Shown: piece by piece, positions 1 to 23,583 of the stretch
How the letters are laid out: each line of letters opens with the position of its first letter
Position numbering within the stretch: the first letter of the stretch is position 1
Origin: Candidatus Omnitrophota bacterium
GTDB taxonomy: Bacteria; Omnitrophota; Gorgyraeia; Zapsychrales; Fredricksoniimonadaceae
DNA: 64,000 nucleotides
Assembly: GCA_015233335.1 (NCBI GenBank)
Contig: JADFXX010000005.1
Span: forward strand, 65,550 to 129,549
Direction: 5' to 3'
Notes under the pieces: generated by a model
What the model saw: only the letters and a program-made list of their open reading frames with translations
Told to the model about the DNA's origin: nothing
Database searches by the model: none
Program-made: the position numbers and the translations under genes

Positions 1-320
1 CCGATAAGAGACTGCCGGGGCCGGACCATCAGGCCTCGCTGGATCCGCAGGAGCTATTGTCTTTGGTGAGGAGTATAAGAAATGTTGAACTAGCAATGGG
101 AGACGGTAAAAAGCAGCCTTCGGCTTGTGAGTTAAAGAATATTCCAGTTGTCCGCCGCAGTATTTTTGCGGCACGTGATATCTGTCAGGGAGAGATATTA
201 ACACAGAAAGATCTGATCGCTAAACGGCCTGGAACGGGGATCAGTCCCATGGCGTGGGACCGGGTTATCGGCCGTCGGGCTAAGCGTGATTTCCACGATG
301 ATGAAATGATAGAGTTGTGA
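1..320 (+). CDS. neuB: Nonulosonic acid synthase (NeuB/LegI/PseI family), C-terminal part; 5' end lies outside the window
   Basis: Frame 3 is open from nt 3: DKRLPGPDHQASLDPQELLSLVRSIRNVELAMGDGKK... The GPDHxASL block plus a C-terminal SAF-type domain are hallmarks of NeuB-family synthases. Confidence 0.85.
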   Translation, partial: DKRLPGPDHQASLDPQELLSLVRSIRNVELAMGDGKKQPSACELKNIPVVRRSIFAARDICQGEILTQKDLIAKRPGTGISPMAWDRVIGRRAKRDFHDDEMIEL

Positions 321-351
321 GCGACAAGCCTCTGGGGCGGCTAAAGGAGAC

Positions 352-1515
352 ATGATGAGGAGAAAAATTTGCGTGGTTACAGGATCAAGGGCGGAATATG
401 GCACGCTGTATCAAACGATCCAAAAGATCGCGGCATCTAATGAACTAGAGTTGCAGCTGGTTGTCACAGGGATGCATCTGTCAGGAGCCTTTGGTTATAC
501 TGTCAAAGAAATTGAGAAGGACGGATATCTTATTGCGGATCGCGTCGAAATGTTGATGGCTTCAGACAGCAAAACGGCGATTGGCAAATCTGTGGGATTG
601 GGGGTTATCGGGTTTGTTGATTGTTATAAGAGATTAGAGCCTGATATTGTCTTGTTGACCGGAGACCGTTTTGAAATGTTTGCAGCCGCGACTGCGGCCA
701 TGATGATGAATCTACCCATTGCGCATATTTCAGGAGGGGAGATTTCTGAAGGGGCGCTCGATGAACAGATCCGCCATGCGATCACAAAAATGAGCCATCT
801 TCATTTTGTTGCTATTGAAGAGAATGCTGCGGTAGTTAGACAAATGGGGGAGGAGCCATGGAGGATCAAAATTGTCGGGGGCACTTGGATAGATAATCTT
901 AAGAAATTTGTGCCGTTTAGCCGCGAAAGCATCCAGACACAGTTGGGCGTTGAACTTTTTTCACCCGCGATTTTGGTCACATATCATCCGGTTACTCTTG
1001 AGCTAGATAAGCTGGATCACTACATTGAGGTTCTTTTTGCAGCGCTTGCCAGAGTTAAAGGGGAGATTATTTTTACCTATCCTAACGCCGATGCGGGCGG
1101 AGAAAAGATCATTCGGGTTTTGGAATCCTTCAGGATTGGACGGCCGCAGGTCAAGGTCTTTAAAAGTCTGGGCTGGCAGATGTATTATAGCCTTTTGAAA
1201 CATGTGGATATTATGGTTGGCAACTCATCGAGCGGGATACATGAAGGGATGGCATTCCAGCTTCCTGTTGTTAATATAGGTAACCGCCAGAGAGGGCGTT
1301 TTACGACGGGGAATGTTATCAGTGTTGCGGATGATCAAGAGGCTATTTATAACGCTATACAGCAGGGGTTAAGGAAGGACTTTAAGGCCAATATCAAAAT
1401 GATGAGAGATCCTTATGATAAGGGGGATACTTCAGGCAATATCGTGCAAGCCCTAAAGACGGTAGATCTTGGGTCCAGAATATTATCCAAGAGGTTTTTG
1501 TTAAGCAGTGATTAA
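352..1515 (+). CDS. neuC: Hydrolysing nucleotide-HexNAc 2-epimerase (NeuC/LegG family)
   Basis: 387 aa; KICVVTGSRAEYG N-terminus and AHISGGEISEGALDEQIRHAITKMSHLHF block typical of NeuC-type epimerases; AAAGGAG RBS upstream. Confidence 0.85.
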   Translation: MMRRKICVVTGSRAEYGTLYQTIQKIAASNELELQLVVTGMHLSGAFGYTVKEIEKDGYLIADRVEMLMASDSKTAIGKSVGLGVIGFVDCYKRLEPDIVLLTGDRFEMFAAATAAMMMNLPIAHISGGEISEGALDEQIRHAITKMSHLHFVAIEENAAVVRQMGEEPWRIKIVGGTWIDNLKKFVPFSRESIQTQLGVELFSPAILVTYHPVTLELDKLDHYIEVLFAALARVKGEIIFTYPNADAGGEKIIRVLESFRIGRPQVKVFKSLGWQMYYSLLKHVDIMVGNSSSGIHEGMAFQLPVVNIGNRQRGRFTTGNVISVADDQEAIYNAIQQGLRKDFKANIKMMRDPYDKGDTSGNIVQALKTVDLGSRILSKRFLLSSD

Positions 1516-1573
1516 ACCCGTATTTTGCTGTTGCAACATCCGGGTTAAAAAGAGGCATAAGGAGATTCTATAA

Positions 1574-2632
1574 ATGGTCAAAGAAATCCTGATCCATAGA
1601 ACTGAGTCTATCAAATTTGCTTTAAAGAAATTAGATAAAACAGCGAAAAAAGTACTGCTTGTGGTAGATCATGAGGAAAAGTTGTTAGGGACAATCGCGG
1701 ATGGGGATATTAGGCGGTATATATTAAGCGGTAAGAGTCTGGACAATGATATCCGGGAGGTCTATAACAAAAAACCGATTTATATAAAAAAGGAAGAGTT
1801 TTCCCCCGAGCTCGCCAAAGAGATGCTGGTGACAAGCAAGGTCGGGCTGATCCCTATTGTAGAAAAAGGGGGGAAAATATTAGATTTTGTAACATGGGAT
1901 CAGCTTTTTACCGATATGCCTATAACGGCCAGGGTCAACATTCCCGTAGTCATAGTGGCGGGAGGGATGGGGTCGAGGCTCGAGCCTTTTACAAAAGTTT
2001 TTCCAAAGCCGTTGATACCTATCGGGGATAAGCCTGTTGTTGAGGTGATCATCGATGAATTTAAAAAGCAGGGGGTTAATAGTTTTTATTTGACCCTGAA
2101 CCATAAAGGGGAAATGGTTGAATCTTATTTCAAGAGTGTAAAGAAAGATTATAAATTAACCTATATTTGGGAAAAAACTTTCCTGGGAACGGCCGGCAGC
2201 TTAAAGCTTTTGGAAAAAAAGATAGGGGATCTTTTTATAGTTTCCAACTGCGATGTTTTGGTTAAGGTGAATTTTGAGGATGCTGTCAATGTTCATAAAA
2301 AAGAGGGGGCCTTAATGACGGTCCTATCGTCTATTCAACATCATAAAATACCGTATGGTGTTGTTAAATCAAAAGAAAAAGGAAGAATTGTCAGCATCAC
2401 AGAAAAGCCGGAATATACGCTGACGATCAATACAGGGGTGTACATTTTTAGTAAAGAATGTTTGAAGTTCATCCCTAAGAATTCACCTTTTGACATGCCC
2501 GACCTGATAGAGCATTTAATAAAAAATAATAAGATGGTCATTACTTATCCGGTCAATGAAAGCGATTATATAGATGTCGGTCAGTGGGAAGAATATAAAA
2601 ATGCTGTTGAGAAATTACAGGTGTTGAGATGA
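1574..2632 (+). CDS. CBS-pair + sugar-phosphate nucleotidyltransferase fusion (PtmE-like architecture)
   Basis: 352 aa; N-terminal CBS region (LLGTIADGDIRRYIL) followed by NTP-transferase G-loop VVIVAGGMGSRLEPFTKVFPKPLIPI; same domain order as the Campylobacter legionaminic-acid pathway enzyme PtmE. Confidence 0.75.
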   Translation: MVKEILIHRTESIKFALKKLDKTAKKVLLVVDHEEKLLGTIADGDIRRYILSGKSLDNDIREVYNKKPIYIKKEEFSPELAKEMLVTSKVGLIPIVEKGGKILDFVTWDQLFTDMPITARVNIPVVIVAGGMGSRLEPFTKVFPKPLIPIGDKPVVEVIIDEFKKQGVNSFYLTLNHKGEMVESYFKSVKKDYKLTYIWEKTFLGTAGSLKLLEKKIGDLFIVSNCDVLVKVNFEDAVNVHKKEGALMTVLSSIQHHKIPYGVVKSKEKGRIVSITEKPEYTLTINTGVYIFSKECLKFIPKNSPFDMPDLIEHLIKNNKMVITYPVNESDYIDVGQWEEYKNAVEKLQVLR

Positions 2633-2650
2633 TAAGCTTGAGGCCGACCC

Positions 2651-3373
2651 ATGTATAAGAATCAAAGGATCATAGCGTTGGTGCCTGCCAGGGGTGGCAG
2701 TAAAGGATTGCCGCATAAGAATATCCGTTTGCTTGAGGGGAAACCTTTGATTGCTTGGACAATAGAACAGGCGAAGAAAAGTAAATATATCGACAGGGTG
2801 ATCGTCAGTACAGATGATAAAAAAATCGCCAATATATCCAAACAATACCAGGCCCAAGTGCCGTTCTTGAGGCCTGCCGCATTGGCAACTGATAAAGCAG
2901 CGATGATGGATGTCGTTTTCCATGCCATGGAATGGATAAAGAGGAATAATGATTCTTATGATTTGATAATGCTTCTTCAGCCGACATCTCCTCTAAGAAA
3001 GTCTAGGGATATAGATGACGCGATAAAATGGCTTTTTAAAAAGAATGCTAAAGCCATTGTTTCTGTATGCAAGACAGAGCATCATCCTTATGGGGCAAAT
3101 GTCTTGCCTAAGAATGGCTGTATGGGGACTTTTATAAGACCGGAAATTGTGAATAAGAACAGGCAACAGCTGCCGGTTTTTTATAGAATCAATGGCGCTA
3201 TTTATCTAGCTAATTGGAGCTATTTAAAAAAGAACAGGCAATTTCTGGGCAAGAAAACTTACGCTTATATTATGCCTGCCGTAAGGTCGGTCGACATAGA
3301 CAGTCATATGGATTTTGAATTTGCTGGCTTTTGTTTGAAGACACAAAGAGTGCGCCAAAGGAGTAAGCGATGA
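2651..3373 (+). CDS. neuA: CMP-nonulosonic acid synthetase (acylneuraminate cytidylyltransferase family)
   Basis: 240 aa; IALVPARGGSKGLPHKNI N-terminal motif and LLQPTSPLR block typical of NeuA/LegF-type cytidylyltransferases. Confidence 0.85.
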   Translation: MYKNQRIIALVPARGGSKGLPHKNIRLLEGKPLIAWTIEQAKKSKYIDRVIVSTDDKKIANISKQYQAQVPFLRPAALATDKAAMMDVVFHAMEWIKRNNDSYDLIMLLQPTSPLRKSRDIDDAIKWLFKKNAKAIVSVCKTEHHPYGANVLPKNGCMGTFIRPEIVNKNRQQLPVFYRINGAIYLANWSYLKKNRQFLGKKTYAYIMPAVRSVDIDSHMDFEFAGFCLKTQRVRQRSKR

Positions 3374-4758
3374 GAGTATTGTTAGTGGTTTACGATGACA
3401 GTGCATATATACATTGGTTCCCGCAGGGCCTGGCCTATATTGCTGCAGTACTTTTGAAAGAGGGGCATGAGGTGCAGGTATACAGTCAGGATAAATGCCA
3501 TTATCCAGATGAGCATCTCACCGCTTATTTGGATCAGAATAAATATGATGTCGTGGGCGTAAGCGTGATCGCAGGGTATTACCAATACAGGAAATTATTG
3601 AAGATATCCGAGGCTATCAACAGGTCAAAAAACAGGCCGTTTTACATCATTGGCGGACACGGACCTGCCCCGGAGGCGGAATTCTTTCTTAAGAAAACAC
3701 AGGCTGATGTCGCCGTGATCGGTGAGGGAGAATTGACCGTCGTGGAACTGCTGGAAGCTTTGACCGATAAAAAACCCTTGAATAATATCAAAGGGATCGC
3801 TTACCGCATGGGAGACCGCGTGACTATCAATGAACGCAGGGGATTGATCAAAGATATTGATACGATACCCTTTCCTGCCTATGCGCTTTTTCCGATAGAG
3901 TATTACAGGCTTTTGAGAGCTCCGCATAATAAAAATGTGGATTTCTCAATGCCTGTCTTATCAGGCAGGGGATGTACGTTCACATGTAATTTTTGCTACA
4001 GGCTGGATGAAGGATTCAGGCCGCGAAGCCCACAGAACATCGTCGAAGAAATAGAGTTCCTGAAAAAGACATATAATATTACCTACATCATCTTTTCAGA
4101 TGAGCTCATGATGTCTTCCATAGAACGCACAATGACATTATGCAATTATTTTATTGAAAAGAAATTAAATGTGCGATGGGATTGCAACGGCAGGCTCAAT
4201 TATGCTAAACCTGATGTGCTTAAGCTGATGAAAAAGGCGGGCTGCGTTTTCATTAATTATGGTATTGAAGCCATGGATGACCGGATATTAAAGAATATGA
4301 AGAAATCATTGACCGTGGAGATCATCATAAAGGGGATCGAAGCGACCCTGAAAGAAGGCATTAGTCCGGGATTTAATATCATATTCGGCAATATCGGTGA
4401 AAATAAAGAAACGTTGAACAAGGGAGTGGAATTTTTATTAAAATATGATGATGGTTCCCAGATGAGGACCATCCGTCCGGTCACTCCTTATCCGGGTTCG
4501 CCGCTTTATTATTATGCCATAGAAAAAGGTCTGCTTAAGGATTGTGAAGATTTTTATGAAAATAAACATATTAATTCTGATCTACTCGCGATCAACTTTA
4601 CGGATATGAGCGATGATGAATTCCATCGGAGCCTACTCGAGGCCAACACCAGGCTGATTTCTAATTATTATCAGAAAAGGTTATCTTCGACGATCAGGCA
4701 GATGGAGGAGCTTTATTTACAAAAGAATGCCAATTTCCGGGGATTCCGACATGTTTAA
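3370..4758 (+). CDS. B12-binding-domain radical SAM protein (class B rSAM, methyltransferase-like)
   Basis: 462 aa; N-terminal Rossmann-type cobalamin-domain-like region (VVGVSVIAGYY...IIGGHGP), radical SAM cluster motif SGRGCTFTCNFCY (CxxxCxxC); ATG overlaps the neuA stop (ATGA at 3370-3373). Confidence 0.8.
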   Translation: MRVLLVVYDDSAYIHWFPQGLAYIAAVLLKEGHEVQVYSQDKCHYPDEHLTAYLDQNKYDVVGVSVIAGYYQYRKLLKISEAINRSKNRPFYIIGGHGPAPEAEFFLKKTQADVAVIGEGELTVVELLEALTDKKPLNNIKGIAYRMGDRVTINERRGLIKDIDTIPFPAYALFPIEYYRLLRAPHNKNVDFSMPVLSGRGCTFTCNFCYRLDEGFRPRSPQNIVEEIEFLKKTYNITYIIFSDELMMSSIERTMTLCNYFIEKKLNVRWDCNGRLNYAKPDVLKLMKKAGCVFINYGIEAMDDRILKNMKKSLTVEIIIKGIEATLKEGISPGFNIIFGNIGENKETLNKGVEFLLKYDDGSQMRTIRPVTPYPGSPLYYYAIEKGLLKDCEDFYENKHINSDLLAINFTDMSDDEFHRSLLEANTRLISNYYQKRLSSTIRQMEELYLQKNANFRGFRHV

Positions 4759-4801
4759 AAAAAAGGATGAAAATCGGCGTTAATGAACCCAAGGAGTGTT
4801 T

Positions 4802-5905
4802 TTAAAACTTGGGGGAAGATTCATAGCTATTGAAAATCTTTTTGACTAAATCTGGTCGAGCATGGTAGCTATCATAAAAACCATCCCCGGTCTGATCAAA
4901 CTGACGCGGATCAAAAGAGCCAATAATTCTTACTTTGAGTTTTCGAGCTAAATCTTGGAAATAGCGATCCATCTCGAGGACCTTGAACGTTTTTTCTTTA
5001 AGAGACATCCATTGGTAAGCATACTCATGATAAGGGGGGAAATAAAAAATGACTTCAACCCCTCGGGATTGTAAATAAAGGATCATTTGTTCCATAACCT
5101 TTTCCAGAGCCTGATCTGGCTTGAACGTGAACATTTTTCCCCCGATGTGAACGGTTGGGATCGTTAGTTGTCGCACTTCTTCTTTGGTCCTAGCCCGATA
5201 AGTCTCAGCCCACGAGAGAGTCCCGTCCTTTAATAACGTATACTCAAGTTTTTGGCAATTTTCATCCGTCGGAAAATTTCTTCGCACAAAAAGATGATCA
5301 TGTGTGAATAGGATATTGGCCGCCTGCTGAAAATAACTCAGTGACAATATGATCCAGAAAGATTGATCAAAGGACGGTTTAGTGTGATAATTTGATCCTA
5401 ATTTCTTCAAGAACTTTTGTATATCATCAGAGGTTTCAGATCGCCGTGGCTCTGAGGAGAACATCCAAGGGTCAATTCCTATGATAAGGGTTCGAGGCAT
5501 TTTCTTCTGCTCGTCCATAACAGAAAGCAAAGCTAGATCATCAAGTAAGCTCCCACCGCTGATCCAAAGATTCATGATCTTTTTGTTAGGGAAGATGTTC
5601 TCTCCGATTTCTGCCGAACGGCTTGAACCGAGCACGACAATATCTGACACAGGCATAATTTCAATCGTATACTTTCGTGTTAAAACATCGTCAACGGGGC
5701 GGTAGTTGCCGATATTTTTTCCGCAAGCCAATTGAGTTGCGGTTTTTCGTGCATGGTCTTTCTCAAGGAACATGTCCCCTGGGTCAACCAAAATATTTAA
5801 ACAAACAATCCCTATCAAAATTGGGAAAAAACGGGCTGCTTTTGATAAGAAACGTTTGATATCCTGAATTTCAAAATTGGAAATATATGAAAGAATTTTT
5901 TCCAT
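4802..5905 (-). CDS. DltD/AlgJ/AlgX-like membrane-anchored partner of the MBOAT (putative O-acyl transfer protein)
   Basis: 367 aa; N-terminal TM anchor (FFPILIGIVCLNILV). It lies directly downstream of the MBOAT gene and overlaps it by 35 nt, the usual MBOAT + DltD/AlgJ-type arrangement. The assignment rests mainly on context and size. Confidence 0.5.
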   Translation of the reverse strand: MEKILSYISNFEIQDIKRFLSKAARFFPILIGIVCLNILVDPGDMFLEKDHARKTATQLACGKNIGNYRPVDDVLTRKYTIEIMPVSDIVVLGSSRSAEIGENIFPNKKIMNLWISGGSLLDDLALLSVMDEQKKMPRTLIIGIDPWMFSSEPRRSETSDDIQKFLKKLGSNYHTKPSFDQSFWIILSLSYFQQAANILFTHDHLFVRRNFPTDENCQKLEYTLLKDGTLSWAETYRARTKEEVRQLTIPTVHIGGKMFTFKPDQALEKVMEQMILYLQSRGVEVIFYFPPYHEYAYQWMSLKEKTFKVLEMDRYFQDLARKLKVRIIGSFDPRQFDQTGDGFYDSYHARPDLVKKIFNSYESSPKF

Positions 5906-7346
5906 AAACTCCTAAAAAAACCATAGATAGAACAATGCCATAATAGAAGGACCATCTCAGCCATGCAGGCTTACCTGCAAACATATGGCGGATATTGTTG
6001 TGCCTCTGAACGGCCTCGACTGCATTCAAGCTGACCAACAGCAATAATGGGAGAATAAGCTGCCGTGTTCCAAATCCCAAACAGCCGTAGATGCCTTTTC
6101 CAATACCCTGTGTCGATATATGTTCAAGAAGTTCTCCCCATCCCTTTGGTAACTGAGAAACAATATAAAAAGCGTCATGAATATCTTTAGCTCGGAAAAA
6201 TATCCAGGAAAAACAGATCAGAGAGAATGTCACCCCTGCCTGCCAGAATTTTAAAAGTTTTGGCTGACGGGTCAAGCCAATCGATTGGCTCAGCTTGTTT
6301 CTGATATAAGCGCTCCAGATTCCGAATATAAGATAAAATCCATTGAGTGCCCCCCAAATAAAGAAAGTCCAGTTGGCTCCGTGCCACATGCCGCTTAATA
6401 AGAATGTTAAGAAAATATTCATTTGCCACCGCCAGCGGACGCATCTGTTCCCCCCCAACGAAATATAAACATAATCCTTAAACCAGCTTGATAGAGATAT
6501 GTGCCAGCGTCTCCAGAACTCTGAAATGGATTTTGAAAAATAAGGCCGATTGAAATTATCCATAAGGCGGAAACCCATAACTTGGGCTGCACCAATGGCG
6601 ATATCCGAGTAACCGGAAAAGTCACAGTAGATCTGAAAGGCAAAAAAGATTGTGGCCATAACAAAAGCCGGGCCGTGATATAAAGACGGATCAGTGTAGA
6701 TTTCATTGACAAAAATCGCTAATCGGTCAGCAATTACAATTTTCTTGAACATCCCCCAGGCCATTAATTTAAGGCCATCAGTCACCCTCCTGTATTCAAA
6801 ATAATGTTTTTCTCTGAACTGAAACAACATATGTTGAGGACGTTCAATAGGCCCAGATACGAGCTGAGGGTAGAACATCACATAAAGGGCGTAAATTCCC
6901 AGATGACGCTCCGCTTTTTGTCGGCCTTTATAGACCTCGATCACGTAAGAGAGGCTTTGAAAGGTGTGAAATGAAAGACCAATGGGCAGAATGATTTCGA
7001 AAACATGGTCAGGATAGCTTAAGCCTAAGAAATGTCCGATAGCGGCCAGGTTTTGATTGAAGAAATTAAAATATTTAAAAAAGAATAGGACTATGCAGGT
7101 TGAAGCGATGCTGACGACAAGCCAGCATTGACGAGCTCTCCCTTGCGTGTCCTCAATGAATATCCCGGCGCAATAGTCGATAAGAATCAGAAAAAAGAGG
7201 ATGAAGATATACTTCGGGATGAACCACATATAAAAAAGACAACTGGCGCCCAAGAGAAGCCACCAGCGACAGGTTTGTGGGAATAAAAAATATAATGCCG
7301 TCACAATCGGAAAAAATATGAGGAATGGCAGAGTATTGAAAGACAA
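5871..7346 (-). CDS. MBOAT-family membrane O-acyltransferase (AlgI/DltB-like)
   Basis: 491 aa polytopic protein; FWRRWHISLSSWFKDYVYISLGGNR and SGMWHGANW (conserved His) blocks; MSFNTLPFLIFFP N-terminus typical of AlgI/DltB; TTG start. Confidence 0.85.
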   Translation of the reverse strand: MSFNTLPFLIFFPIVTALYFLFPQTCRWWLLLGASCLFYMWFIPKYIFILFFLILIDYCAGIFIEDTQGRARQCWLVVSIASTCIVLFFFKYFNFFNQNLAAIGHFLGLSYPDHVFEIILPIGLSFHTFQSLSYVIEVYKGRQKAERHLGIYALYVMFYPQLVSGPIERPQHMLFQFREKHYFEYRRVTDGLKLMAWGMFKKIVIADRLAIFVNEIYTDPSLYHGPAFVMATIFFAFQIYCDFSGYSDIAIGAAQVMGFRLMDNFNRPYFSKSISEFWRRWHISLSSWFKDYVYISLGGNRCVRWRWQMNIFLTFLLSGMWHGANWTFFIWGALNGFYLIFGIWSAYIRNKLSQSIGLTRQPKLLKFWQAGVTFSLICFSWIFFRAKDIHDAFYIVSQLPKGWGELLEHISTQGIGKGIYGCLGFGTRQLILPLLLLVSLNAVEAVQRHNNIRHMFAGKPAWLRWSFYYGIVLSMVFLGVYGKNSFIYFQF

Positions 7347-7442
7347 GAGGAATACCTATGCTTTGAGACACCTATTGCAAACAGGCAACAGGAGTATAAA
7401 ATTATATAAATTAATAATTTTATAAGTATAATTTTGAATAAT

Positions 7443-7469
7443 ACTATAGTAATACTTTTTATTTGTCAA
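7443..7469 (-). promoter_or_regulatory. Candidate sigma70-type promoter for the MBOAT/DltD-like pair
   Basis: Minus strand reads TTGACA (7469-7464), 15-nt spacer, TATAGT (7448-7443), inside a very AT-rich 284-nt divergent intergenic region. The spacer is shorter than optimal. Confidence 0.35.
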
Positions 7470-7630
7470 CGCTGATTACGATTTTTGGCGGCTTTAATTT
7501 GGGACTTGGGTTACTCAGACAGCTCAATTTGCTATTGCGCTTTCTTGCTGTCCGTTATATTATTATTGCTCTTGAGTTTTAGGTAAAATCCATTCCCAGG
7601 GATTCTGCCATATTTAAGAAAGGCGAAGAA

Positions 7631-8815
7631 GTGACAAAGATCGTCTTTTTGCTATCATCGGTATTCAGCCAGAAAGATAAAGAGCGTTTTGGCGTTGAAA
7701 TTCTACAACAAAATGGCTTTGAAGTGGAAGTCTGGGATTTTACGCCGTTTCTTAATCCATGGAGATGGGGCATCTCAGAGCCTTTTGATAAAAGTCAATT
7801 TGAGGCTTACCGCGTTTTATTGACAAAGAAAGAAGCTCTTGGGGCATTATCCGGTCTGACCAAGGACTGTCTGATTATTTGTGTCGTTGATTACTCCTAT
7901 GAAACCTTTTTTCTTTATCGAAAAATTTCAGACCTCAGGCTGCCTTATTGTTTGATCGCGTATAATTTTCCAACTTTTGATATGAAATCCGGCAGGAGCA
8001 ATATATTTAAACGGTTGGCAAATTTATCGTTTGAAAAATTGAGGGTACACCTATTCTATAAAATACCATTCCAGTGGCTTGGGGTCAAGCCGGCCAAGAT
8101 CGTGCTGATGCTGGGAGGAGGCGACACCCTCACGAGGTGCACAATCGACAGAACAACCGAGATCATCCGGTCACATTATTTTGACTATGACCTTTATCTT
8201 CAAGAAATTCAAAAGCCTCTGGAGACAGATGATCATACGGCTGTTTTTTTGGATAATTATATTCCTTTTCACCCGGACTGGTGTGGCCCATCTCATGTGG
8301 AACCCGAGGAGTATTATTCGATTCTTTGTAAGTTTTTTGATTTGCTGGAGAACAAATATGGGGTACGTGTGGTTATCGCTGCCCATCCTCGTTCGGCCTA
8401 TGAGGATTTACCGGATTATTTTAACGGCAGGCTTGTTATTAAAGGGAAAACCGCAGAATTGGTTAGGCGATCAAAATTTGCGATCGTTCATTATAGCGCG
8501 TCGGTCAGCTTTGCAGCTTTATTTAATAAACCAATTATTTTTGTGACAACCGAAAAGTTGCATCAGACTCAAGATGCGAAAATTATAGACTTTATGGCGG
8601 GTTTGTTTAATAAATCTGTTATTAATCTAAACGGGGACCTCCAAGTTGATACGGACCGGGAATTTACAGTGGATGATACTGCGTATAAGAAATATATAGA
8701 TGCTTATATCAAGCCCAAGGGCACTTCAGATTTGCCGATATGGCAAGTTTTTGCCAATAACCTTAAAAATGTTAAACAATCTGAGCGGGCACAGTGTTGC
8801 GGTAAGCCGATATAA
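7631..8815 (+). CDS. Hypothetical soluble protein; possible GT-B-like surface-carbohydrate transferase
   Basis: 394 aa, GTG start after AAAGG; no motif I can name with certainty. The C-terminal half (VVIAAHPRS...AIVHYSASVSFAALFNKPIIFV) resembles a Rossmann-type transferase half-domain. First gene of the long + strand run. Confidence 0.5.
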   Translation: MTKIVFLLSSVFSQKDKERFGVEILQQNGFEVEVWDFTPFLNPWRWGISEPFDKSQFEAYRVLLTKKEALGALSGLTKDCLIICVVDYSYETFFLYRKISDLRLPYCLIAYNFPTFDMKSGRSNIFKRLANLSFEKLRVHLFYKIPFQWLGVKPAKIVLMLGGGDTLTRCTIDRTTEIIRSHYFDYDLYLQEIQKPLETDDHTAVFLDNYIPFHPDWCGPSHVEPEEYYSILCKFFDLLENKYGVRVVIAAHPRSAYEDLPDYFNGRLVIKGKTAELVRRSKFAIVHYSASVSFAALFNKPIIFVTTEKLHQTQDAKIIDFMAGLFNKSVINLNGDLQVDTDREFTVDDTAYKKYIDAYIKPKGTSDLPIWQVFANNLKNVKQSERAQCCGKPI

Positions 8816-8830
8816 ATATTTGGAGAGGTA

Positions 8831-9706
8831 ATGCTTAGGGAAAAGGTTGCAGGATTATTACGAAGCTTGGGGATAAAGCCGACCCGTTTTTATGAAAGGC
8901 TGGCTCAACTCTCAATTAATGCGTCTTTAATCGAAAACGGCATGGGGCCGCTGGTCAAGAAGTTAAAAAGTATAGTTCCGGATCTTAGTCGGCAATACTC
9001 ATTCGGGATGGAGGCATTTAATGATTATGCGTCCGTTAAAATGCGGGGCATGCATGCGTTCCAATGTTCTTTGATGCTGACACTTATTGAGGGTATGGGA
9101 AAGAGGACATTAACAGTTGTGGATATAGGGGATTCATCAGGAACGCATATGCTGTATTTAAAGGAGCTGGCTAAAGACAAATTCCATATTGATACGATCA
9201 GTGTTAATCTTGACCCAAGGGCCATAGAAAGAATTAAGGCCCGGGGGTTGGAAGCCATTTATTGTCGTGCAGAAGAATTAGACTTAGGTGATAAGAAAAT
9301 CGATCTATTTACCTCATTTGAAATGGTTGAGCACCTGCATAATCCGGTGATCTTTTTTCGTCGTTTAGCCAAAAAAAGCACTTGTTCTAGGATGCTTGTA
9401 ACCGTACCTTATCTAAAAAAAAGCAGGGTCGGGCTGTACTATATTCGGACTAACTCCGTTAAACCTATTTCTGCGGAAGAAGAACACATTTTTGAACTCA
9501 GTCCGGAAGATTGGTCGTTGCTTTTTAAACATGCGGGCTGGAAAGTTATCCACAGCAAAACGTACTATCAGTATCCGCGTAAAATCCCTTTATTAAGAAG
9601 CCTCCTTGCGGCATTTTGGAGGGCCACTGATCTTGAAGGGTTTTGGGGAGCTGTTTTAGAAAAGGATACGACAGCGTCTGATTTATATCAGGATTGGGAG
9701 GAATGA
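8831..9706 (+). CDS. Class I SAM-dependent methyltransferase
   Basis: 291 aa; motif I VVDIGDSSGTH and DLFTSFEMVEHLHNP block; GGAGAGG RBS. Confidence 0.75.
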   Translation: MLREKVAGLLRSLGIKPTRFYERLAQLSINASLIENGMGPLVKKLKSIVPDLSRQYSFGMEAFNDYASVKMRGMHAFQCSLMLTLIEGMGKRTLTVVDIGDSSGTHMLYLKELAKDKFHIDTISVNLDPRAIERIKARGLEAIYCRAEELDLGDKKIDLFTSFEMVEHLHNPVIFFRRLAKKSTCSRMLVTVPYLKKSRVGLYYIRTNSVKPISAEEEHIFELSPEDWSLLFKHAGWKVIHSKTYYQYPRKIPLLRSLLAAFWRATDLEGFWGAVLEKDTTASDLYQDWEE

Positions 9707-9734
9707 TTCGCCCTTTTTTTAAGGTCATGAGCCT

Positions 9735-10511
9735 ATGGCAGTTAAAAATATTCAATATAAGACAAAGCAGATCTCAGAATATTTTACAACGAACAGGATA
9801 AAATGGGGCCAATTTTATCCGTCTGAAAAATGGATCTTCGAGAAGGTCGCGGGGACAGATGGTAAAATGGGAAAGATTCTGGATGTAGGCTGTGCCGCCG
9901 GCGGGCTTGGGTTGGCGCTAAGGGAGCGTTTTTTTGTGTCGCAATATGTCGGCGTGGACATTAACGCTCCAGCTATTGAGGAGGCCCAAAAAAGGAAAGT
10001 AAAAAAGAATTGTCCAAGCCAATTTATCTGTGGGGATATATTGGACATTCACCAGCTGCCTGCCGAAAAATTTGATAACGTTTTTTCTTTGAGCTGTGCG
10101 GATTGGAATAAGGCGACGGAAGATATCATCAGCGAATGCTGGAAGTATGTTCGTGTCGGGGGACATTTTATTTTAACCCTGCGATTGACCCCGCAGAAGT
10201 CATTACTTACTTTGTCTGAGAGCTTTCAGTATATTTATTTTGGAAAAGGGGCCCCGGAAAAAAAGCAGGGGATTGAAAAAGCGCCGTATATAGTATTGAA
10301 TGCTTCCCATGCATTTTCGTTATTATCCGGTCTTCAGCCTAAGCCGGACCGTATTATGGCCTATGGATATTGGGGGGCACCTTCCCGGACAGCCAGGACA
10401 AAATATGATCGATTGGTTTTTACGGCGTTAGCTGTGAGAAAATCTGATCATAATTTGAAAGATGTATCATGCGAGCTGCATTTACCGGCGGATTTATTTA
10501 TCAGAGGATGA
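9735..10511 (+). CDS. Class I SAM-dependent methyltransferase
   Basis: 258 aa; motif I ILDVGCAAGGLGLAL, later FDNVFSLSCADW block. Confidence 0.75.
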   Translation: MAVKNIQYKTKQISEYFTTNRIKWGQFYPSEKWIFEKVAGTDGKMGKILDVGCAAGGLGLALRERFFVSQYVGVDINAPAIEEAQKRKVKKNCPSQFICGDILDIHQLPAEKFDNVFSLSCADWNKATEDIISECWKYVRVGGHFILTLRLTPQKSLLTLSESFQYIYFGKGAPEKKQGIEKAPYIVLNASHAFSLLSGLQPKPDRIMAYGYWGAPSRTARTKYDRLVFTALAVRKSDHNLKDVSCELHLPADLFIRG

Positions 10512-13821: not shown

Positions 13822-14832
13822 ATGGATATGTATGTTGCCATTGCCAAAGAACTCCTGAAGAGCGTTCATGCGCGGCCTGTGTGTGTTGATGTGGGCAGTG
13901 CAGGAGGATTTCATCAGAGGCTGGAAGCTGTCCGGTCAGAAGTGGATATTATTGGTTTCGATGCTGACCCGGATGAATGCGCACGGCTTAACGCGGCGGC
14001 CAAGCAGGGAGAGCGGCATATTAACGCCGCTATAGGTAGGGAGAATGAAAAGATCACACTTGAATTACATAAGAAGAGAAAGACATCTTCTTGTTACAAA
14101 ACGAATATGGACAGGGTTTCTTATTTTTATGATGCTGAAAGATTTACGCCTGAGGGTGAAATATCTTTTACTACGCACAGCTTGGATGCTATTTGCGCAT
14201 CCGAGGGTATAAAGCGGATTGATTATATCAAGGTTGATGTTGAGGGCCATGAGCTTGCTGTTCTTGAGGGATGTGCTAAGGTTTTTTTGTTTGCTGAGCT
14301 AGAAGTGTATTTTCATCCGTTTCGCGAGGGAGCCTGTTCTTTTGATCAGATCATGAGCCATATGCGCCAGAGAGGTTATATTTTAATGGATCTGCGCAGG
14401 AATTATTGGAGTCCCAAAAGTACAGATGCCATAAGAAATTACAGCGTCAAAGGTATGCTCATGTTCGGGGATGCTTTATTTTGCCTGGATCCTTTCTTGA
14501 AAGTTAACCAGTCTGCATGGAGCACGGCAGAAGCCAGGGCCGGGTATCTAGCTTTGCTTAGTTTGTATGGCTATACAGCCGAAGCGCTGATGTTTATTGA
14601 TGTGCTTAAGGGCAACGGGTCCATGCCGACTGATGAGGCCGAGATTTTCAAAGGGATCATTATGCGAGGATCTGTTCGTCGTAAATGTAAGGCTCGGTTG
14701 GGACGGATTATGCTGCTGATGGAAAAATGGATGCAGTTTCCTATTGCCGTTCGTTCGGGTCTTTCTTTGAGTGCCCATTGTCAGGGGGACGGGGAATTGG
14801 GAAATCTGGATGAACGGGGAGGAGTGGAATGA
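13822..14832 (+). CDS. FkbM-family methyltransferase
   Basis: 336 aa; IDYIKVDVEGHELAVLEG block characteristic of FkbM-type methyltransferases. Confidence 0.7.
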   Translation: MDMYVAIAKELLKSVHARPVCVDVGSAGGFHQRLEAVRSEVDIIGFDADPDECARLNAAAKQGERHINAAIGRENEKITLELHKKRKTSSCYKTNMDRVSYFYDAERFTPEGEISFTTHSLDAICASEGIKRIDYIKVDVEGHELAVLEGCAKVFLFAELEVYFHPFREGACSFDQIMSHMRQRGYILMDLRRNYWSPKSTDAIRNYSVKGMLMFGDALFCLDPFLKVNQSAWSTAEARAGYLALLSLYGYTAEALMFIDVLKGNGSMPTDEAEIFKGIIMRGSVRRKCKARLGRIMLLMEKWMQFPIAVRSGLSLSAHCQGDGELGNLDERGGVE

Positions 14833-15593
14833 AGATTATAGGTGTTGTCCCGGCCCGTATGGCCGCAAGTCGTTTTCCCGGAAAGCCTTTATATCCGATT
14901 TGCGGGAAGCCTATGGTGGAGCATGTTTTTTGTCGGGCGGCGATGTTCCCCAAATGGGACGGGCTGTATCTGGCGACTTGTGATCAGGAAATCTTTGATT
15001 TTGGAAAATCGAAAGGTTGGCCGACGATCATGACATCGGACCGTCATACCCGCGCATTGGACAGGGTTGCCGAAGCGGCCCAAAAGTGCGGGCATGATCT
15101 TGATGATCAGGATATTGTTGTATGTGTGCAAGGTGATGAACCGATGCTCCATCCGGACATGATCACGGCCGTCGTACGTCCCCTTGAAGAAAACAAGCAG
15201 GTCCATGGGACGGTACTTTCCATTGCTATTGCAGATGAAGAGCAATTTAAGAATCCGGACATCGTTAAAATTATCCATAATATCAAAGGGGATGTTCTTT
15301 ATACTTCCCGCTTACCGATACCCTATTGTAAAAAATTCAGCCTTGAGCTTGGTGCGCGTCGGATCGGAGGTATTTTTGGATTTCGATGGCATTTCCTTAA
15401 AACATTTACCGGCTTGCCGGAATCCCCGCTCGAGTTGAAGGAATCATGCGATAGCAATAGGTTTTTGGATCATGGGTATCACCAAAGGATCGCCCCGTAC
15501 CCTTGTAAAGCGGTGTATTCAATCGACAGCCCGGCAGATGTGCGGCAAGTGGAACAGCATATGAAAAATGATCCTCTATGGGGATCATACTAG
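14829..15593 (+). CDS. KdsB-like cytidylyltransferase (CMP-ulosonic acid synthetase family)
   Basis: 254 aa; KIIGVVPARMAASRFPGKPL N-terminus and VCVQGDEPMLHPDMI block match the CMP-Kdo synthetase family pattern; ATGA overlap with the FkbM gene. Confidence 0.75.
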   Translation: MKIIGVVPARMAASRFPGKPLYPICGKPMVEHVFCRAAMFPKWDGLYLATCDQEIFDFGKSKGWPTIMTSDRHTRALDRVAEAAQKCGHDLDDQDIVVCVQGDEPMLHPDMITAVVRPLEENKQVHGTVLSIAIADEEQFKNPDIVKIIHNIKGDVLYTSRLPIPYCKKFSLELGARRIGGIFGFRWHFLKTFTGLPESPLELKESCDSNRFLDHGYHQRIAPYPCKAVYSIDSPADVRQVEQHMKNDPLWGSY

Positions 15594-15611
15594 TTTTATC
15601 ATGGGAGAGAT

Positions 15612-16364
15612 ATGAATCAAAATGAGAGTAAATTTTTCAGTAAAAGCGAGTTGTCCCGCTATGATGCGACAAGTTTACCGTTTATTTATTTATTAAAGTC
15701 CGCGTACATTCAGATACGGCGTAAGTTATGGGGAAAATTCTTTGATAAAGACGCACGAATGGTATGGACGATCGACGCTGTGAGTGATGCTGTCGGGCCG
15801 GCGGATAATGTGAGGAACTATCTTGAAAGAAGGACACTACGTTCGGTCTTGTCTGAAGTAACAAAGAACGGTCCGATTGCGTCGGCCTGTGAAGTCGGGT
15901 GCGGATATGGACGGTTGATCATGGTCTTGAAGGAGTATGCCTCCAAGGTTGTCGGTTTTGAGAGAGAAGGTCATCTTTTAGATGTTGCCAAGTCTTTATT
16001 GCCGGACATAGTCTTTTGTCAATGTGATTCACTGAACATGGTTGATCAAAGAAAACTGGGGCCGTTTGATTTTGCCATGACATGGACGGTGTTGCAGCAT
16101 CTGACCGATGAAGATTGTCAAGCTGTTATTACTGCGATAAAGCATTTAGTGCCTAACGGGTATATATTAATATCTGAGAAGACACAAGCAGTGGCGGTCA
16201 CACAAAACGTTACTGAAGGTAGGCAGTTTATCAGTCGGGCGAGATCGGTGGAAACATATAAAGATTGGATGAAGCCGTACACTCTAGTTAAAATTTTAAA
16301 TACTTCGGTTGAAAATACTTATCATAACAAGACACCGGGAACATGCATGTTGTTTAAAAGATAA
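15612..16364 (+). CDS. Class I SAM-dependent methyltransferase
   Basis: 250 aa; motif I ACEVGCGYGRLIMVL, FDFAMTWTVLQHL block. Confidence 0.7.
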   Translation: MNQNESKFFSKSELSRYDATSLPFIYLLKSAYIQIRRKLWGKFFDKDARMVWTIDAVSDAVGPADNVRNYLERRTLRSVLSEVTKNGPIASACEVGCGYGRLIMVLKEYASKVVGFEREGHLLDVAKSLLPDIVFCQCDSLNMVDQRKLGPFDFAMTWTVLQHLTDEDCQAVITAIKHLVPNGYILISEKTQAVAVTQNVTEGRQFISRARSVETYKDWMKPYTLVKILNTSVENTYHNKTPGTCMLFKR

Positions 16365-16396
16365 TCCGAACAATATTTTTATGTGGAGGCACTGTT

Positions 16397-17308
16397 TTGG
16401 GCATTGAAAAGATCAAGATATTGCTTGGGCCGTCAACTTTTGCAGAAACAGATAAATCTCCATTGGAGAAACTCGCCTCTGCCGGTTTCGAGGTCATCCA
16501 CAACCCTTATAAGCGGAAACTAACAGAGGATGAACTTCTCAAATTGCTGCCGGGAGTGGTGGGGCTGATCGCCGGTTTGGAGCCCTTAAACCGCAAGGTA
16601 TTGCAAGCTTCCTGTTTAAAGGTGATTTCACGATGCGGTTCAGGACTTTCCAATGTGGACCTTCAGGCCGCCCGAGATCTAGGCATTATCGTGCGCAGCA
16701 CTCCGTCCGGCCCAACAACAGCAGTTGCGGAATTGACACTGGGTTGCCTGCTGTCTCTTTTACGGCAGATACCTCCTATGAACCAGTCGCTCCATCAGGG
16801 GACTTGGGTTAAGCGTATCGGCAGACAACTGCAGGGCGCTTGTGTTGCCGTTATTGGATTTGGAAGAATAGGAAGAAAGGTAGGGCAACTGCTGGCAGCC
16901 TTTGGTGCCAAGGTAGTGGCTGTTGACCCCCTGCTTTCTGGGGAAGTAGAAAACATTAAGATCGTTCCTTTGTCAGAGGCGCTTAAAAAGGCGGATATCA
17001 TCACTTTGCATGCAAGCGGTGAAGATCGGTTGTTGGGAAGCGGTGAATTTGAAATGATGAAGGAAGGTGTTTTTATTTTAAATGTCGCGCGTGGCGGTCT
17101 GTTGGATGAAAAAGCCCTGGCGAAGGCCATTGATGGTAAGAAGGTGGCCGGGGCTTGGCTGGATACATTCGATGTAGAACCGTATAGTGGTATTCTCTGT
17201 CGATATGAACAAGTTATTTTAACGCCGCATATCGGTTCATATACGGTTGAATGTCGTCGAGAAATGGAGATGGAAGCAGTTTTAAATCTCATGGATTCCT
17301 TTAAGTAA
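16397..17308 (+). CDS. D-isomer-specific 2-hydroxyacid dehydrogenase (phosphoglycerate dehydrogenase-like)
   Basis: 303 aa; NAD fold VAVIGFGRIGRKVGQLLAAFGAKVVAVDP, NVARGGLLDE and catalytic TPHIGSYT blocks; TTG start 6 nt after GGAGG. Confidence 0.8.
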   Translation: MGIEKIKILLGPSTFAETDKSPLEKLASAGFEVIHNPYKRKLTEDELLKLLPGVVGLIAGLEPLNRKVLQASCLKVISRCGSGLSNVDLQAARDLGIIVRSTPSGPTTAVAELTLGCLLSLLRQIPPMNQSLHQGTWVKRIGRQLQGACVAVIGFGRIGRKVGQLLAAFGAKVVAVDPLLSGEVENIKIVPLSEALKKADIITLHASGEDRLLGSGEFEMMKEGVFILNVARGGLLDEKALAKAIDGKKVAGAWLDTFDVEPYSGILCRYEQVILTPHIGSYTVECRREMEMEAVLNLMDSFK

Positions 17309-17317
17309 AGGCATTTT

Positions 17318-18076
17318 ATGGCCCCTGTCGATCTGGACGGATTGTTGTTATTGGCAACTGATACGGCAAAGCTTGCTGCCGAAATTGCTTTGAAAGACCA
17401 TCCTGCCTTGAGACATGCGAAGGTTGATTTGAATCGAGATATCAAGCTCGAAGCGGATTATGAACTTGAAAGGGTTATCATAGAAAATATTGTACGCAAG
17501 TCGGACTATCCTATATTGTCCGAGGAACGGGGAATGGTGGCTCGTCAAGGGGGCAGGGGCAGTTATCGTTGGATCATTGATCCGTTAGACGGAACGCTTA
17601 ATTTCTATCGCGGTATTCCCATGAGCTGCATTTCTATTGGCTTGTGGAAAGATATGGAACCTTTGTTGGGGGTTGTTCTTGATTTTAACCGTCAAGAAAT
17701 TTTTACGGGCTGTGTCGGGCGCGGGGCCTGGTTGAATGGGGTTGGGGTCAAGGTTAGTCCTGTGACAGAAAAATCAAAAGCTGTACTGTGTACCGGATTT
17801 CCGATTAGTTCTGATTTTTCAAAAGAGCCGTTACTTGAGTTCGTTGAGGATATTAGAATGTTCAAAAAAGTCCGTTTATTTGGTTCTGCCGCGTTGTCGC
17901 TTGCGTATGTAGCCAGCGGAAGGGTCGATGGCTATCGTGAAAATTGTATTAAGATTTGGGATGTGGGGGCAGGATTGGCTTTAGTTAAAGCGGCGGGCGG
18001 AGAGGTATGCGTACAGAAGGCAGGTCATGATTTTGTTTTAAATGTCAAAGCGTCAAGTTCAAGCATTCTTTTTTAG
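17318..18076 (+). CDS. Inositol-monophosphatase-family phosphatase
   Basis: 252 aa; ILSEERG, WIIDPLDGTLNF and WDVGAGLALVKAAGG signature blocks. Confidence 0.8.
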   Translation: MAPVDLDGLLLLATDTAKLAAEIALKDHPALRHAKVDLNRDIKLEADYELERVIIENIVRKSDYPILSEERGMVARQGGRGSYRWIIDPLDGTLNFYRGIPMSCISIGLWKDMEPLLGVVLDFNRQEIFTGCVGRGAWLNGVGVKVSPVTEKSKAVLCTGFPISSDFSKEPLLEFVEDIRMFKKVRLFGSAALSLAYVASGRVDGYRENCIKIWDVGAGLALVKAAGGEVCVQKAGHDFVLNVKASSSSILF

Positions 18077-18085
18077 GAGGGTTAA

Positions 18086-22799: not shown

Positions 22800-22810
22800 G
22801 GAGTAAAAGA

Positions 22811-23554: not shown

Positions 23555-23583
23555 CAGTGATCAATAAAAGTTAAGGAGCAACA

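Follow-up and report, generated by a model that had tools for sequence, protein, structure and literature searches.

What is a radical enzyme doing at the end of a gene cluster for nonulosonic acid synthesis? The question is raised by a stretch of 64,000 nucleotides from a Candidatus Omnitrophota bacterium (GenBank assembly GCA_015233335.1, contig JADFXX010000005.1, positions 65,550 to 129,549 of the forward strand), here called the window, in which a gene for a B12-binding-domain radical S-adenosylmethionine (SAM) protein, here called rSAM, closes such a cluster. Nonulosonic acids decorate flagella, S-layers, capsules and lipopolysaccharide, with effects on motility, on recognition by phages and on immune evasion; to our knowledge, all characterised routes to them use ordinary two-electron enzymes. 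The evidence set out below indicates that rSAM is very probably dedicated to the nonulosonic acid pathway. More tentatively, it is proposed that the protein is a cobalamin-type class B accessory enzyme of the cytidine monophosphate (CMP)-legionaminic acid pathway of anaerobes, which would C-methylate a legionaminic acid (Leg) derivative, methylation being the leading hypothesis for its chemistry. The features on which the argument depends are the following.

3..320, plus strand: 3' end of a neuB/legI-type nonulosonic acid synthase gene, its frame open to the window edge and cut by the window start

352..1515, plus strand: neuC/legG-type hydrolysing nucleotide-sugar 2-epimerase (TIGR03568 NeuC_NnaA 452 bits, cut-off 235.9; Epimerase_2 286.6 bits)

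1574..2632, plus strand: PtmE-like protein with a CBS domain (residues 5-51) and a nucleotidyltransferase domain (NTP_transferase, residues 126-348), both by Pfam

2651..3373, plus strand: neuA/legF-type CMP-nonulosonate synthetase (CTP_transf_3 98.9 bits)

3358-3363, plus strand: Shine-Dalgarno-like hexamer AAGGAG, read from the sequence within the 3' end of neuA, 6 nucleotides before the rSAM ATG

3370..4758, plus strand: rSAM gene, encoding a B12-binding-domain radical SAM protein of 462 amino acids from an ATG start (open reading frame list and Pfam)

The rSAM gene is the last of a co-directional neuB-neuC-ptmE-neuA-rSAM run, and its ATG and the neuA stop codon TGA (3371-3373) share the tetranucleotide ATGA at 3370-3373. 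An earlier note on this DNA had described both the overlap of the rSAM start with the neuA stop and the closure of a neuB-neuC-nucleotidyltransferase-neuA module by rSAM; the overlap is seen as described, and the downstream genes (4802..5905 and 5871..7346) lie on the minus strand. The overlap suggests that rSAM is translationally coupled to neuA.

The type of nonulosonic acid can be refined from the gene content. The neuB fragment matches SAF (PF08666, 48 bits), TIGR03569 NeuB_NnaB (89 bits, profile positions 246-329) and, more weakly, PseI (49.5 bits), and the best NCBIfam model for the neuA product is PseF at 179.3 bits, under its cut-off of 205.7. The guanosine diphosphate (GDP)-dependent legionaminic acid route, the C. 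jejuni pathway, is marked by the pairing of NeuC with a CBS-nucleotidyltransferase; the CBS-nucleotidyltransferase is presumed here, from pathway knowledge and not from a curated model, to be the counterpart of C. jejuni PtmE. Because these two occur side by side in the window, and LegB (TIGR04180 546 bits, cut-off 475) and LegC (TIGR04181 480 bits, cut-off 420) occur in orthologous loci, the module is assigned by its predicted products to the GDP-dependent Leg type. The orthologous loci also hold a NeuD-type acetyltransferase (212 bits, cut-off 161), which with LegB and LegC is placed upstream of NeuB. The window begins inside neuB and contains the NeuB fragment, NeuC, the PtmE-like protein and NeuA, while LegB, LegC and LegH would lie upstream of its start.

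The association of rSAM with this pathway extends far beyond the window. One genome per GTDB species was scanned with peptide patterns drawn from the rSAM protein only, which gave 80 loci, and open reading frames were called and clustered by BLAST over 81 loci, namely the 80 fetched and the window. Linkage was counted in the 48 species' loci that have 5 kb or more of sequence on each side (full-flank loci), picked by rSAM sequence alone. At least one of the seven core Leg families lies within 10 kb of rSAM in 46 of these 48 loci (96%), at least five are found in 33 and all seven in 13, the individual families being represented by NeuB in 41, LegC in 36, NeuA in 34, NeuC in 33, LegH in 31, PtmE in 30 and LegB in 26 loci. 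NeuC and PtmE occur together in 27 of the 48, and 215 of 226 core Leg genes are co-directional with the rSAM gene. Conserved linkage with nonulosonic acid genes, which the earlier note had made a touchstone of its reading, is thus present in nearly all full-flank loci; by our own rough estimate, chance would bring a random gene to within 10 kb of a cassette 8 kb long in about 1% of cases, given a genome of 3 Mb.

The position of rSAM within the cassette varies: it follows NeuA in the window, L021 and L040, lies between LegC and NeuC in L064 and L077 and between NeuB and NeuC in L006, precedes LegB in L037 and L063, and is found between NeuA and NeuC in Methanolobus (L005). The spacers around it often overlap or are very short, as in L064 (LegC, -4, rSAM) and L005 (NeuA, -11, rSAM, -4, NeuC). 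Since gene order is shuffled in this way, the linkage is kept by selection and not by common ancestry of one operon, and its persistence despite reshuffling across domains of life is strong evidence of a shared function. The most economical arrangements are two flagellin islands of Bacillota, flagellin-x-Maf-rSAM-NeuC-NeuB-LegH-PtmE-NeuA-LegB-LegC-FliD-FliS in L048 and FliS-flagellin-Maf-LegH-PtmE-NeuA-rSAM-LegB-LegC-NeuC-NeuB in L061, in both of which rSAM is the sole enzyme besides Maf and the seven Leg enzymes. From these minimal islands we infer that rSAM would act on a metabolite of the Leg pathway. The idea that it might instead replace a core Leg step was rejected, given that all seven core families stand beside it in 13 full-flank loci.

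Several loci weigh against this assignment and against the proposed role as a whole. Seven full-flank loci have NeuB/NeuA without NeuC or PtmE, and in their place such loci usually have genes for a SPASM radical SAM protein, a class I methyltransferase and a class III aminotransferase. Five full-flank loci lack both NeuB and NeuA within 10 kb, three of them having LegB/C/H-like genes only and two none, and in the nearest relative among the genomes (L045/L081, 78%) there are four B12 radical SAM genes but no NeuB within 10 kb. It could accordingly be supposed that rSAM modifies some other component of these islands, be it another sugar, a lipid carrier, a polymer or the flagellin protein, and that its clustering with Leg genes is incidental. 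The window and many other loci are indeed large mixed polysaccharide clusters rich in methyltransferases, glycosyltransferases and radical SAM genes, 25 paralogous B12 radical SAM proteins and a SPASM radical SAM family occur in the 81 loci, NeuB/NeuA are missing nearby in L045/L081, L046, L055 and L083, and on a 12-kb contig of a Magnetospirillum metagenome-assembled genome (MAG), where no nonulosonic acid gene is present, rSAM is flanked by flaF and flbT. Yet the minimal islands contain only Maf and the seven Leg enzymes besides rSAM, the gene is inserted among core Leg genes with overlapping or very short spacers (L064, L005), the exceptions L082 and L083 still have flagellar or Maf contexts, and linkage of 96% to one sugar pathway over more than 15 phyla contrasts with the 1% or so of our chance estimate. 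Incidental clustering is hence regarded as improbable, and dedication of rSAM to the nonulosonic acid pathway is retained with high confidence.

Further observations concern the neighbourhoods of the orthologues. In the Magnetospirillum sp. MAG (L082, 2547-4900) the orthologue stands between the flagellin regulators flaF/flbT, near flgK, a SPASM radical SAM gene and a short-chain dehydrogenase/reductase (SDR), and in a Magnetococcales MAG (L083, 401-11389) it lies beside an 825-residue MptE/Maf-like protein, DegT and a Gfo oxidoreductase; no NeuB was found on the stretch seen of either flagellar context. Radical SAM genes are crowded in the orthologous stretches L045/L081 5103-17078, L084 1-11170 and L001 17715-20647; one Thermodesulfovibrionales locus holds four B12 radical SAM genes and a SPASM radical SAM gene within 16 kb, and an alphaproteobacterial MAG has, in order, a radical SAM gene, a 747-residue fusion of CBS, NeuB, SAF and AP_endonuc_2 domains, Fe-ADH, a cytidylyltransferase, a B12 radical SAM gene, Aminotran_4, the orthologue and another B12 radical SAM gene. 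This crowding suggests that heavily radical-tailored ulosonic acids may be made by such clusters. Four proteins of 1800-2600 amino acids (P0291, P0294, P0300 and P0372) contain two to four separate stretches that match the rSAM protein, and they possibly represent multi-domain fusions in which radical SAM modules stand in tandem. An acetamidino-forming trio of the WbuZ/HisH/WbuX type often adjoins rSAM (L008, L012, L014, L017, L018, L023, L030, L036, L042, L057, L069 and L073), and WbuX lies at most three genes from the orthologue in 15 of 80 loci. Many clusters with this trio therefore probably make 5-acetimidoyl legionaminic acid, which could be the form on which the rSAM enzyme acts.

The orthologues form a well-delimited family. 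Identity to the query is bimodal, with 80 orthologues, each of about 462 amino acids, at 57% or more (57-78% in the scanned loci) and 25 B12 radical SAM paralogues from the same loci at 31% or less. The best 120 homologues are all of about 462 amino acids and 72-85% identical, those that are named spanning several phyla, and a search of 1.84 billion 50%-identity representatives returned a few family representatives at 60-67%, full-length relatives at 40-52% and the general cloud of B12 radical SAM proteins at about 35%. An entry identical to the rSAM protein of the window (P0001), from a Candidatus Omnitrophica MAG, bears the title 'radical SAM protein [Candidatus Omnitrophica bacterium]'. The hosts of the family are anaerobes of more than 15 phyla, including Omnitrophota, Nitrospirota, Desulfobacterota, Bacillota, Planctomycetota, Elusimicrobiota, Parcubacteria, Margulisbacteria, Campylobacterota, Alpha- and Betaproteobacteria, Leptospirales, Bacteroidota (Chitinophagales) and Actinomycetota, as well as two lineages of methanogenic archaea, Methanolobus and Methanomicrobiaceae. 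The gene is also carried by cultured organisms, namely Wukongibacter baidiensis DY30321, Desulfoscipio geothermicus DSM 3669 and Desulfosporosinus sp. Tol-M. Identities of 57-85% from Omnitrophota to methanogens speak of strong selection and of repeated horizontal transfer of an eight-gene cassette.

If rSAM serves the Leg pathway, the next question is what kind of radical enzyme it is. Its domains are as follows.

3403..3750, plus strand: N-terminal Rossmann-type B12-binding domain, residues 12-127 (PF02310 63.2 bits, cut-off 32.1)

3961..4434, plus strand: radical SAM core, residues 198-355 (PF04055 79.9 bits, cut-off 29.5)

3973..3996, plus strand: [4Fe-4S] motif C202-x3-C206-x2-C209 (CTFTCNFC), read from the sequence

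The CxxxCxxC motif and N-terminal B12-type domain of the earlier note are thus backed by Pfam matches above cut-off, and the order of the two, a Rossmann B12 domain ahead of a radical SAM domain, is the class B architecture (class I in the scheme of PMC12931638). C202, C206 and C209 are invariant in 77 of 77 full-length orthologues, within the conserved stretch R200-G-C-x-F-x-C-x-F-C-Y-R211, and 73 positions are invariant across these 77 proteins, 20 of them within the first 130 residues. Among the additional cysteines, C272 is invariant, C258 and C292 are conserved in at least 95% and C392 in at least 90%; these four may form a second metal site or be purely structural. Of the basic residues, R211, R217, R275, R366 and R369 are invariant and R219 and K399 are conserved in at least 95%; some of them may line an anion-binding pocket for the substrate.

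An AlphaFold2 model built from 81 homologues (mean predicted local distance difference test score 89.8, predicted template-modelling score 0.89) combines a beta/alpha Rossmann domain at the N-terminus with a partial TIM barrel and a C-terminal region of helices, the N-terminal elements (E, strand; H, helix) being E2-7, H19-30, E34-39, H48-56, E61-66, H69-84, E91-96, H103-110, E114-116 and H121-132. Foldseek placed it closest, among structures in the PDB, to AprD4 (6FD2), MgmA/QCMT (9CCB), TsrM (6WTE), OxsB (5UL4), CysS (9N1D) and TokK (7KDX), in this order, with about 17% identity, template-modelling (TM) scores of 0.63-0.72 and a probability of 1.00 to many radical SAM structures. The cobalamin-type fold that the earlier note had predicted is consequently matched by known cobalamin radical SAM enzymes. 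The alignment of the family profile runs through the B12 domain for OxsB (residues 49-360), MgmA (75-351), CysS (87-363), TokK (70-281) and TsrM (2-360), whereas its match to AprD4 is confined to the core (residues 193-398, E=4e-19), and AprD4 binds no cobalamin (PMC12931638). Because the alignment covers the N-terminal domain of the true cobalamin binders and not that of AprD4, the corresponding domain of rSAM is nearer to theirs. In addition, S65-x-I67 and G95-G96-H97 are conserved in the orthologues, and the nearly invariant spacing S65-x-I67...G95-G96 is like that of SxL...GG, the motif for the nucleotide tail in B12 domains.

The N-terminal domain might instead be a Rossmann remnant without cobalamin, like that of AprD4 or ArsL, which would make rSAM an ordinary radical SAM enzyme with a single cofactor; this explanation overlaps with the non-methylating chemistries considered below. 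Cobalamin-free enzymes with Rossmann-like domains do sit inside the B12 radical SAM similarity network (PMC12931638), AprD4 is the top structural match, and rSAM lacks the DxHxxG motif, although this motif is generally missing from class B enzymes (PMC12931638). Such a remnant is improbable, however, given a PF02310 score of 63 bits, twice the gathering score, an N-terminal similarity to OxsB, MgmA, CysS, TokK and TsrM but not to AprD4, the near-invariance of the S65-x-I67...G95-G96 spacing with its likeness to the B12 motif, and the 20 of 73 invariant residues in the first 130. Taken together, these sequence features make it likely that the protein binds cobalamin.

The reaction itself is less firmly indicated. 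The NCBIfam models closest to rSAM, with score and cut-off, are listed below.

BchE (TIGR02026): 146.8 bits, cut-off 481

Ladderane B12 radical SAM protein (TIGR04072): 136 bits, cut-off 360

HpnJ (TIGR03471): 135.9 bits, cut-off 578

PhpK: 113 bits, cut-off 600

ApyD: 105 bits, cut-off 750

Sden_1168: 104 bits, cut-off 575

C-methyltransferase of ribosomally synthesised and post-translationally modified peptides: 91 bits, cut-off 282

HpnR: 84 bits, cut-off 650

AprD4 (NF033070): 71.1 bits, cut-off 500, residues 198-398 only

Methyl-coenzyme M reductase glutamine C-methyltransferase: 70.5 bits, cut-off 360

KedN5: 64 bits, cut-off 700

No NCBIfam model reaches its cut-off, all falling far short, and rSAM therefore lies outside every curated subgroup with a known substrate, so that the known unrelated subgroup which the earlier note had held against its own reading was not encountered. 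Annotation as a BchE or YgiQ homologue, as in some JGI records, was rejected because the scores are far under the cut-offs.

The same ranking weighs against methylation in particular. BchE, the ladderane protein and HpnJ, none of them a known methylase, outscore the methylases PhpK and ApyD, and AprD4, a cobalamin-free sugar 1,2-diol dehydratase, is the best match by structure and by PDB sequence. The earlier note had suggested radical tailoring of a nonulosonic acid, C-methylation for example; the tie to nonulosonic acid genes (46 of 48 loci) supports the first half of this suggestion, while methyl transfer is not favoured by the subfamily ranking. An enzyme dedicated to Leg could then perform non-methylating radical chemistry that alters the sugar in a redox-neutral or oxidative way, with cobalamin as an electron sink or unused: an AprD4-like dehydration or deoxygenation with a partner reductase, an epimerisation to a Leg stereoisomer, or a rearrangement or ring contraction like those of OxsB or HpnJ. 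For this it can be said that AprD4, which acts on an aminosugar, is the top match (E=7e-17 for the single protein, 4e-19 for the profile, Foldseek 8.6e-21, TM 0.72), that OxsB matches the profile through both domains (E=1.2e-13), that the top models BchE, ladderane radical SAM protein and HpnJ are listed under 'other or unknown transformations' (PMC12931638), and that possible partner reductases recur, SDR in 17 and Gfo/Idh/MocA in 15 of 80 loci. On the other hand, these matches are of about 17% identity and far under the cut-offs (71 against 500 bits for AprD4 NF033070), the N-terminal domain aligns with true cobalamin binders and not with AprD4, and 5,7-di-N-acetyllegionaminic acid (Leg5Ac7Ac), by its established structure, has no vicinal diol for a dehydration of the AprD4 type. 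SDR and Gfo proteins also occur, as PtmA/PtmF-type genes, in Campylobacter clusters that lack rSAM, which makes them an unspecific sign, and neither of the minimal islands (L048, L061) has a reductase partner. A non-methylating reaction is accordingly rated as rather unlikely, though less so than a loss of cobalamin.

The residue beneath the corrin ring bears on the same choice. Radical methylases have a hydrophobic residue there, such as Trp76 of TokK, and other enzymes a polar one, such as Arg69 of TsrM or Asn186 of OxsB (PMC12931638). In our alignments TokK W76 corresponds to Y71 (Tyr in 76 of 77 orthologues) and OxsB N186 to I67 (Ile in 62 of 77); the two candidate lower-face residues are hydrophobic, unlike TsrM Arg69 or OxsB Asn186, but they are different residues, and this disagreement between two structure-guided alignments (I67 or Y71) counts against the methylase assignment. 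Hydrophobic residues at the lower-axial positions would thus be weak support for a methylase. If dedication to the nonulosonic acid pathway and bound cobalamin are both granted, methyl transfer is somewhat favoured as the reaction.

In the C-methylation proposed here, a [4Fe-4S] cluster on C202, C206 and C209 would reductively cleave SAM to give the 5'-deoxyadenosyl radical, which would take a hydrogen atom from an unactivated sp3 carbon of a Leg intermediate or of CMP-Leg; methylcobalamin in the N-terminal domain would then hand over its methyl group and be recharged by a second SAM. The predicted product is a C-methylated Leg derivative (+14.016 Da), which would be passed on to Maf-type flagellin glycosyltransferases or, as in the window, to surface-polysaccharide transferases. 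Candidate sites of methylation would be the backbone (C9 or a carbinol carbon) or an N-acyl group. Since NeuB and NeuA are the partners left in loci without NeuC and PtmE, action at or after the nonulosonate stage is mildly favoured.

Full-text literature searches returned no paper tying radical SAM enzymes to legionaminic, pseudaminic (Pse) or nonulosonic acids or to flagellin glycosylation, beyond incidental co-mentions, which agrees with the view of the earlier note that the known sialic, Leg and Pse pathways have no radical SAM step. The phase-variable genes of C. fetus include radical SAM genes of the MoaA/SPASM type, a family other than that of rSAM, and a 2026 paper on Clostridium flagellin makes no mention of cobalamin or of a radical enzyme. 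The radical SAM step would be new for nonulosonic acids; the enzyme superfamily itself is known, and it is the pathway context that has not been described before.

A +CH2 backbone variant of a Leg/Pse-type acid does exist in nature. Mass spectrometry of Magnetospirillum gryphiswaldense has revealed CMP-activated ulosonic acids whose backbone is longer by one carbon; in these, the 1,2-diamino-4,5-methylenedioxybenzene (DMB) marker is found at m/z 311.10 and not at 297.09, and four instead of three carbons are lost to the keto-acid core (bioRxiv 10.64898/2026.04.20.719630). Kleikamp et al. 2020 had earlier reported 'potential 10 C' acids in the same organism and, at lower abundance, in Methanococcus (PMC8157484); a biosynthetic gene for C10 acids is proposed in neither paper. 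It is conceivable that rSAM, by adding a backbone carbon to a Leg-type acid (e.g. at C9), is the missing origin of these CMP-activated C10 acids, and this reading, if true, would establish a sugar class of its own that horizontal transfer has carried between anaerobic bacteria and archaea. Two points weigh against it. Homology searches seeded with alphaproteobacterial sequences found a Magnetospirillum sp. MAG protein (MBI5163052.1) and a Magnetococcales protein, but no orthologue named as M. gryphiswaldense among the best 120 matches, where only about one quarter of the proteins carry names, and the absence from the genome scan is limited by its use of exact peptide patterns; moreover, NeuB supplied with a seven-carbon (heptose-derived) aldose could yield a C10 acid just as well. 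For these two reasons the C10 acids are taken as a chemical precedent only; an origin from rSAM is considered unlikely.

A radical, probably cobalamin-dependent step would bring a new type of chemistry to the nonulosonic acids. It would make rSAM a concrete gene candidate for nonulosonic acid masses, the reported C10 species among them, that are so far unexplained in microbes from the environment and in anaerobes. The protein would also offer a compact class B enzyme of 462 amino acids with a small, defined and water-soluble substrate, suited to mechanistic work and to the production of modified CMP-sugars.

The remainder of the window is consistent with a large surface-polysaccharide region. 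A scan of the window for Rfam families and tRNAs found no cobalamin riboswitch, no other Rfam family and no tRNA. Within positions 1-8000, 10 terminator-like sites were counted, which is within the shuffle expectation of 7.5 ± 3.0, and 30 promoter-like sites compared with 18.8 ± 4.6 in shuffles, none of either kind falling in the 43-bp gap after the rSAM gene. Other genes in the window are the following.

4802-5905, minus strand: unassigned protein of 367 amino acids, no family match, overlapping the acyltransferase gene and convergent with rSAM

5871-7346, minus strand: MBOAT/DltB-like membrane acyltransferase (TIGR04091 152 bits, below cut-off)

7631-8815, plus strand: protein of 394 amino acids, no Pfam or NCBIfam match even at E<=1

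14829-15593, plus strand: second CTP_transf_3 cytidylyltransferase, within the 14829-18673 group

24669-26462: asparagine-synthase-like open reading frame, recognised by eye from its MCGI N-terminus

26459-28276: heparinase II/III-like protein

The pair at 4802-5905 and 5871-7346 is probably a glycan O-acylation system, judging from the acyltransferase match. The family of the 394-residue protein (7631-8815) is present in 10 orthologous loci, where it adjoins rSAM four times and usually stands beside a Wzx-like flippase, and its member in the window could serve as the transferase of the modified nonulosonic acid. Besides the second cytidylyltransferase, the group at 14829-18673 (plus strand) holds a class I methyltransferase, a 2-hydroxyacid dehydrogenase, an inositol-monophosphatase-like protein and a SIS-domain isomerase, which indicates a putative second activated-sugar route, of the 3-deoxy-D-manno-octulosonic acid (Kdo) or heptose type, in the same cluster. 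SAM-dependent methyltransferase genes are unusually dense in the polysaccharide cluster (8831-10511, 13822-14832, 15612-16364, 22796-24651 and 34473-35873), and the methyltransferases of the window include the FkbM type and a fusion of a methyltransferase with a family 2 glycosyltransferase.

Compared with known systems, the locus combines a familiar pathway with an unfamiliar enzyme. The canonical C. jejuni CMP-Leg pathway consists of LegB/C/H/G/I/F and PtmE; the window shares with it NeuB (LegI), NeuC (LegG), the PtmE-like protein and NeuA (LegF), and the full seven-gene cassette also occurs in orthologous loci of rSAM. We know of no radical SAM step in the characterised CMP-Leg pathway, whereas here an eighth enzyme of the cobalamin-type radical class is embedded in the cassette. 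Within class B, Fom3 offers a precedent for the use of a CMP-activated substrate, such as an enzyme encoded beside a CMP-nonulosonate synthetase would have. The class B methylases TokK, CysS and MgmA/QCMT have the same domain order as rSAM, in which the Rossmann B12 domain precedes a partial TIM barrel with the CxxxCxxC motif, and they match its model with Foldseek E values of 1e-17 to 1e-20 at about 17% identity; TokK and CysS, however, are of about 650-680 amino acids with large C-terminal domains that the 462-residue rSAM lacks, and a nonulosonic acid context is unprecedented for the class. By function, GenK and GenD1 are the closest likeness, as class B enzymes that C-methylate aminosugars, and most characterised class B enzymes are methylases, including these two sugar C-methylases and Fom3 (PMC12931638).

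AprD4 (6FD2), from apramycin biosynthesis, is close to rSAM in size (457 amino acids), aligns with it over residues 193-409, which take in the radical SAM core and the C-terminal stretch behind it, and has an aminosugar as its substrate, but differs in an N-terminal domain that does not align with the rSAM family, in its lack of cobalamin and in its AprD3-type reductase, which is not obligatorily linked to rSAM. HpnJ reportedly rearranges a sugar-derived ring. OxsB also rearranges such a ring and is matched by the rSAM family profile through both domains, with Ile67 of rSAM in place of its hydrophilic lower-face Asn186. The contexts of OxsB, BchE and HpnJ, namely the oxetanocin, bacteriochlorophyll and hopanoid pathways, differ from that of rSAM, which stands within a cassette for legionaminic acid.

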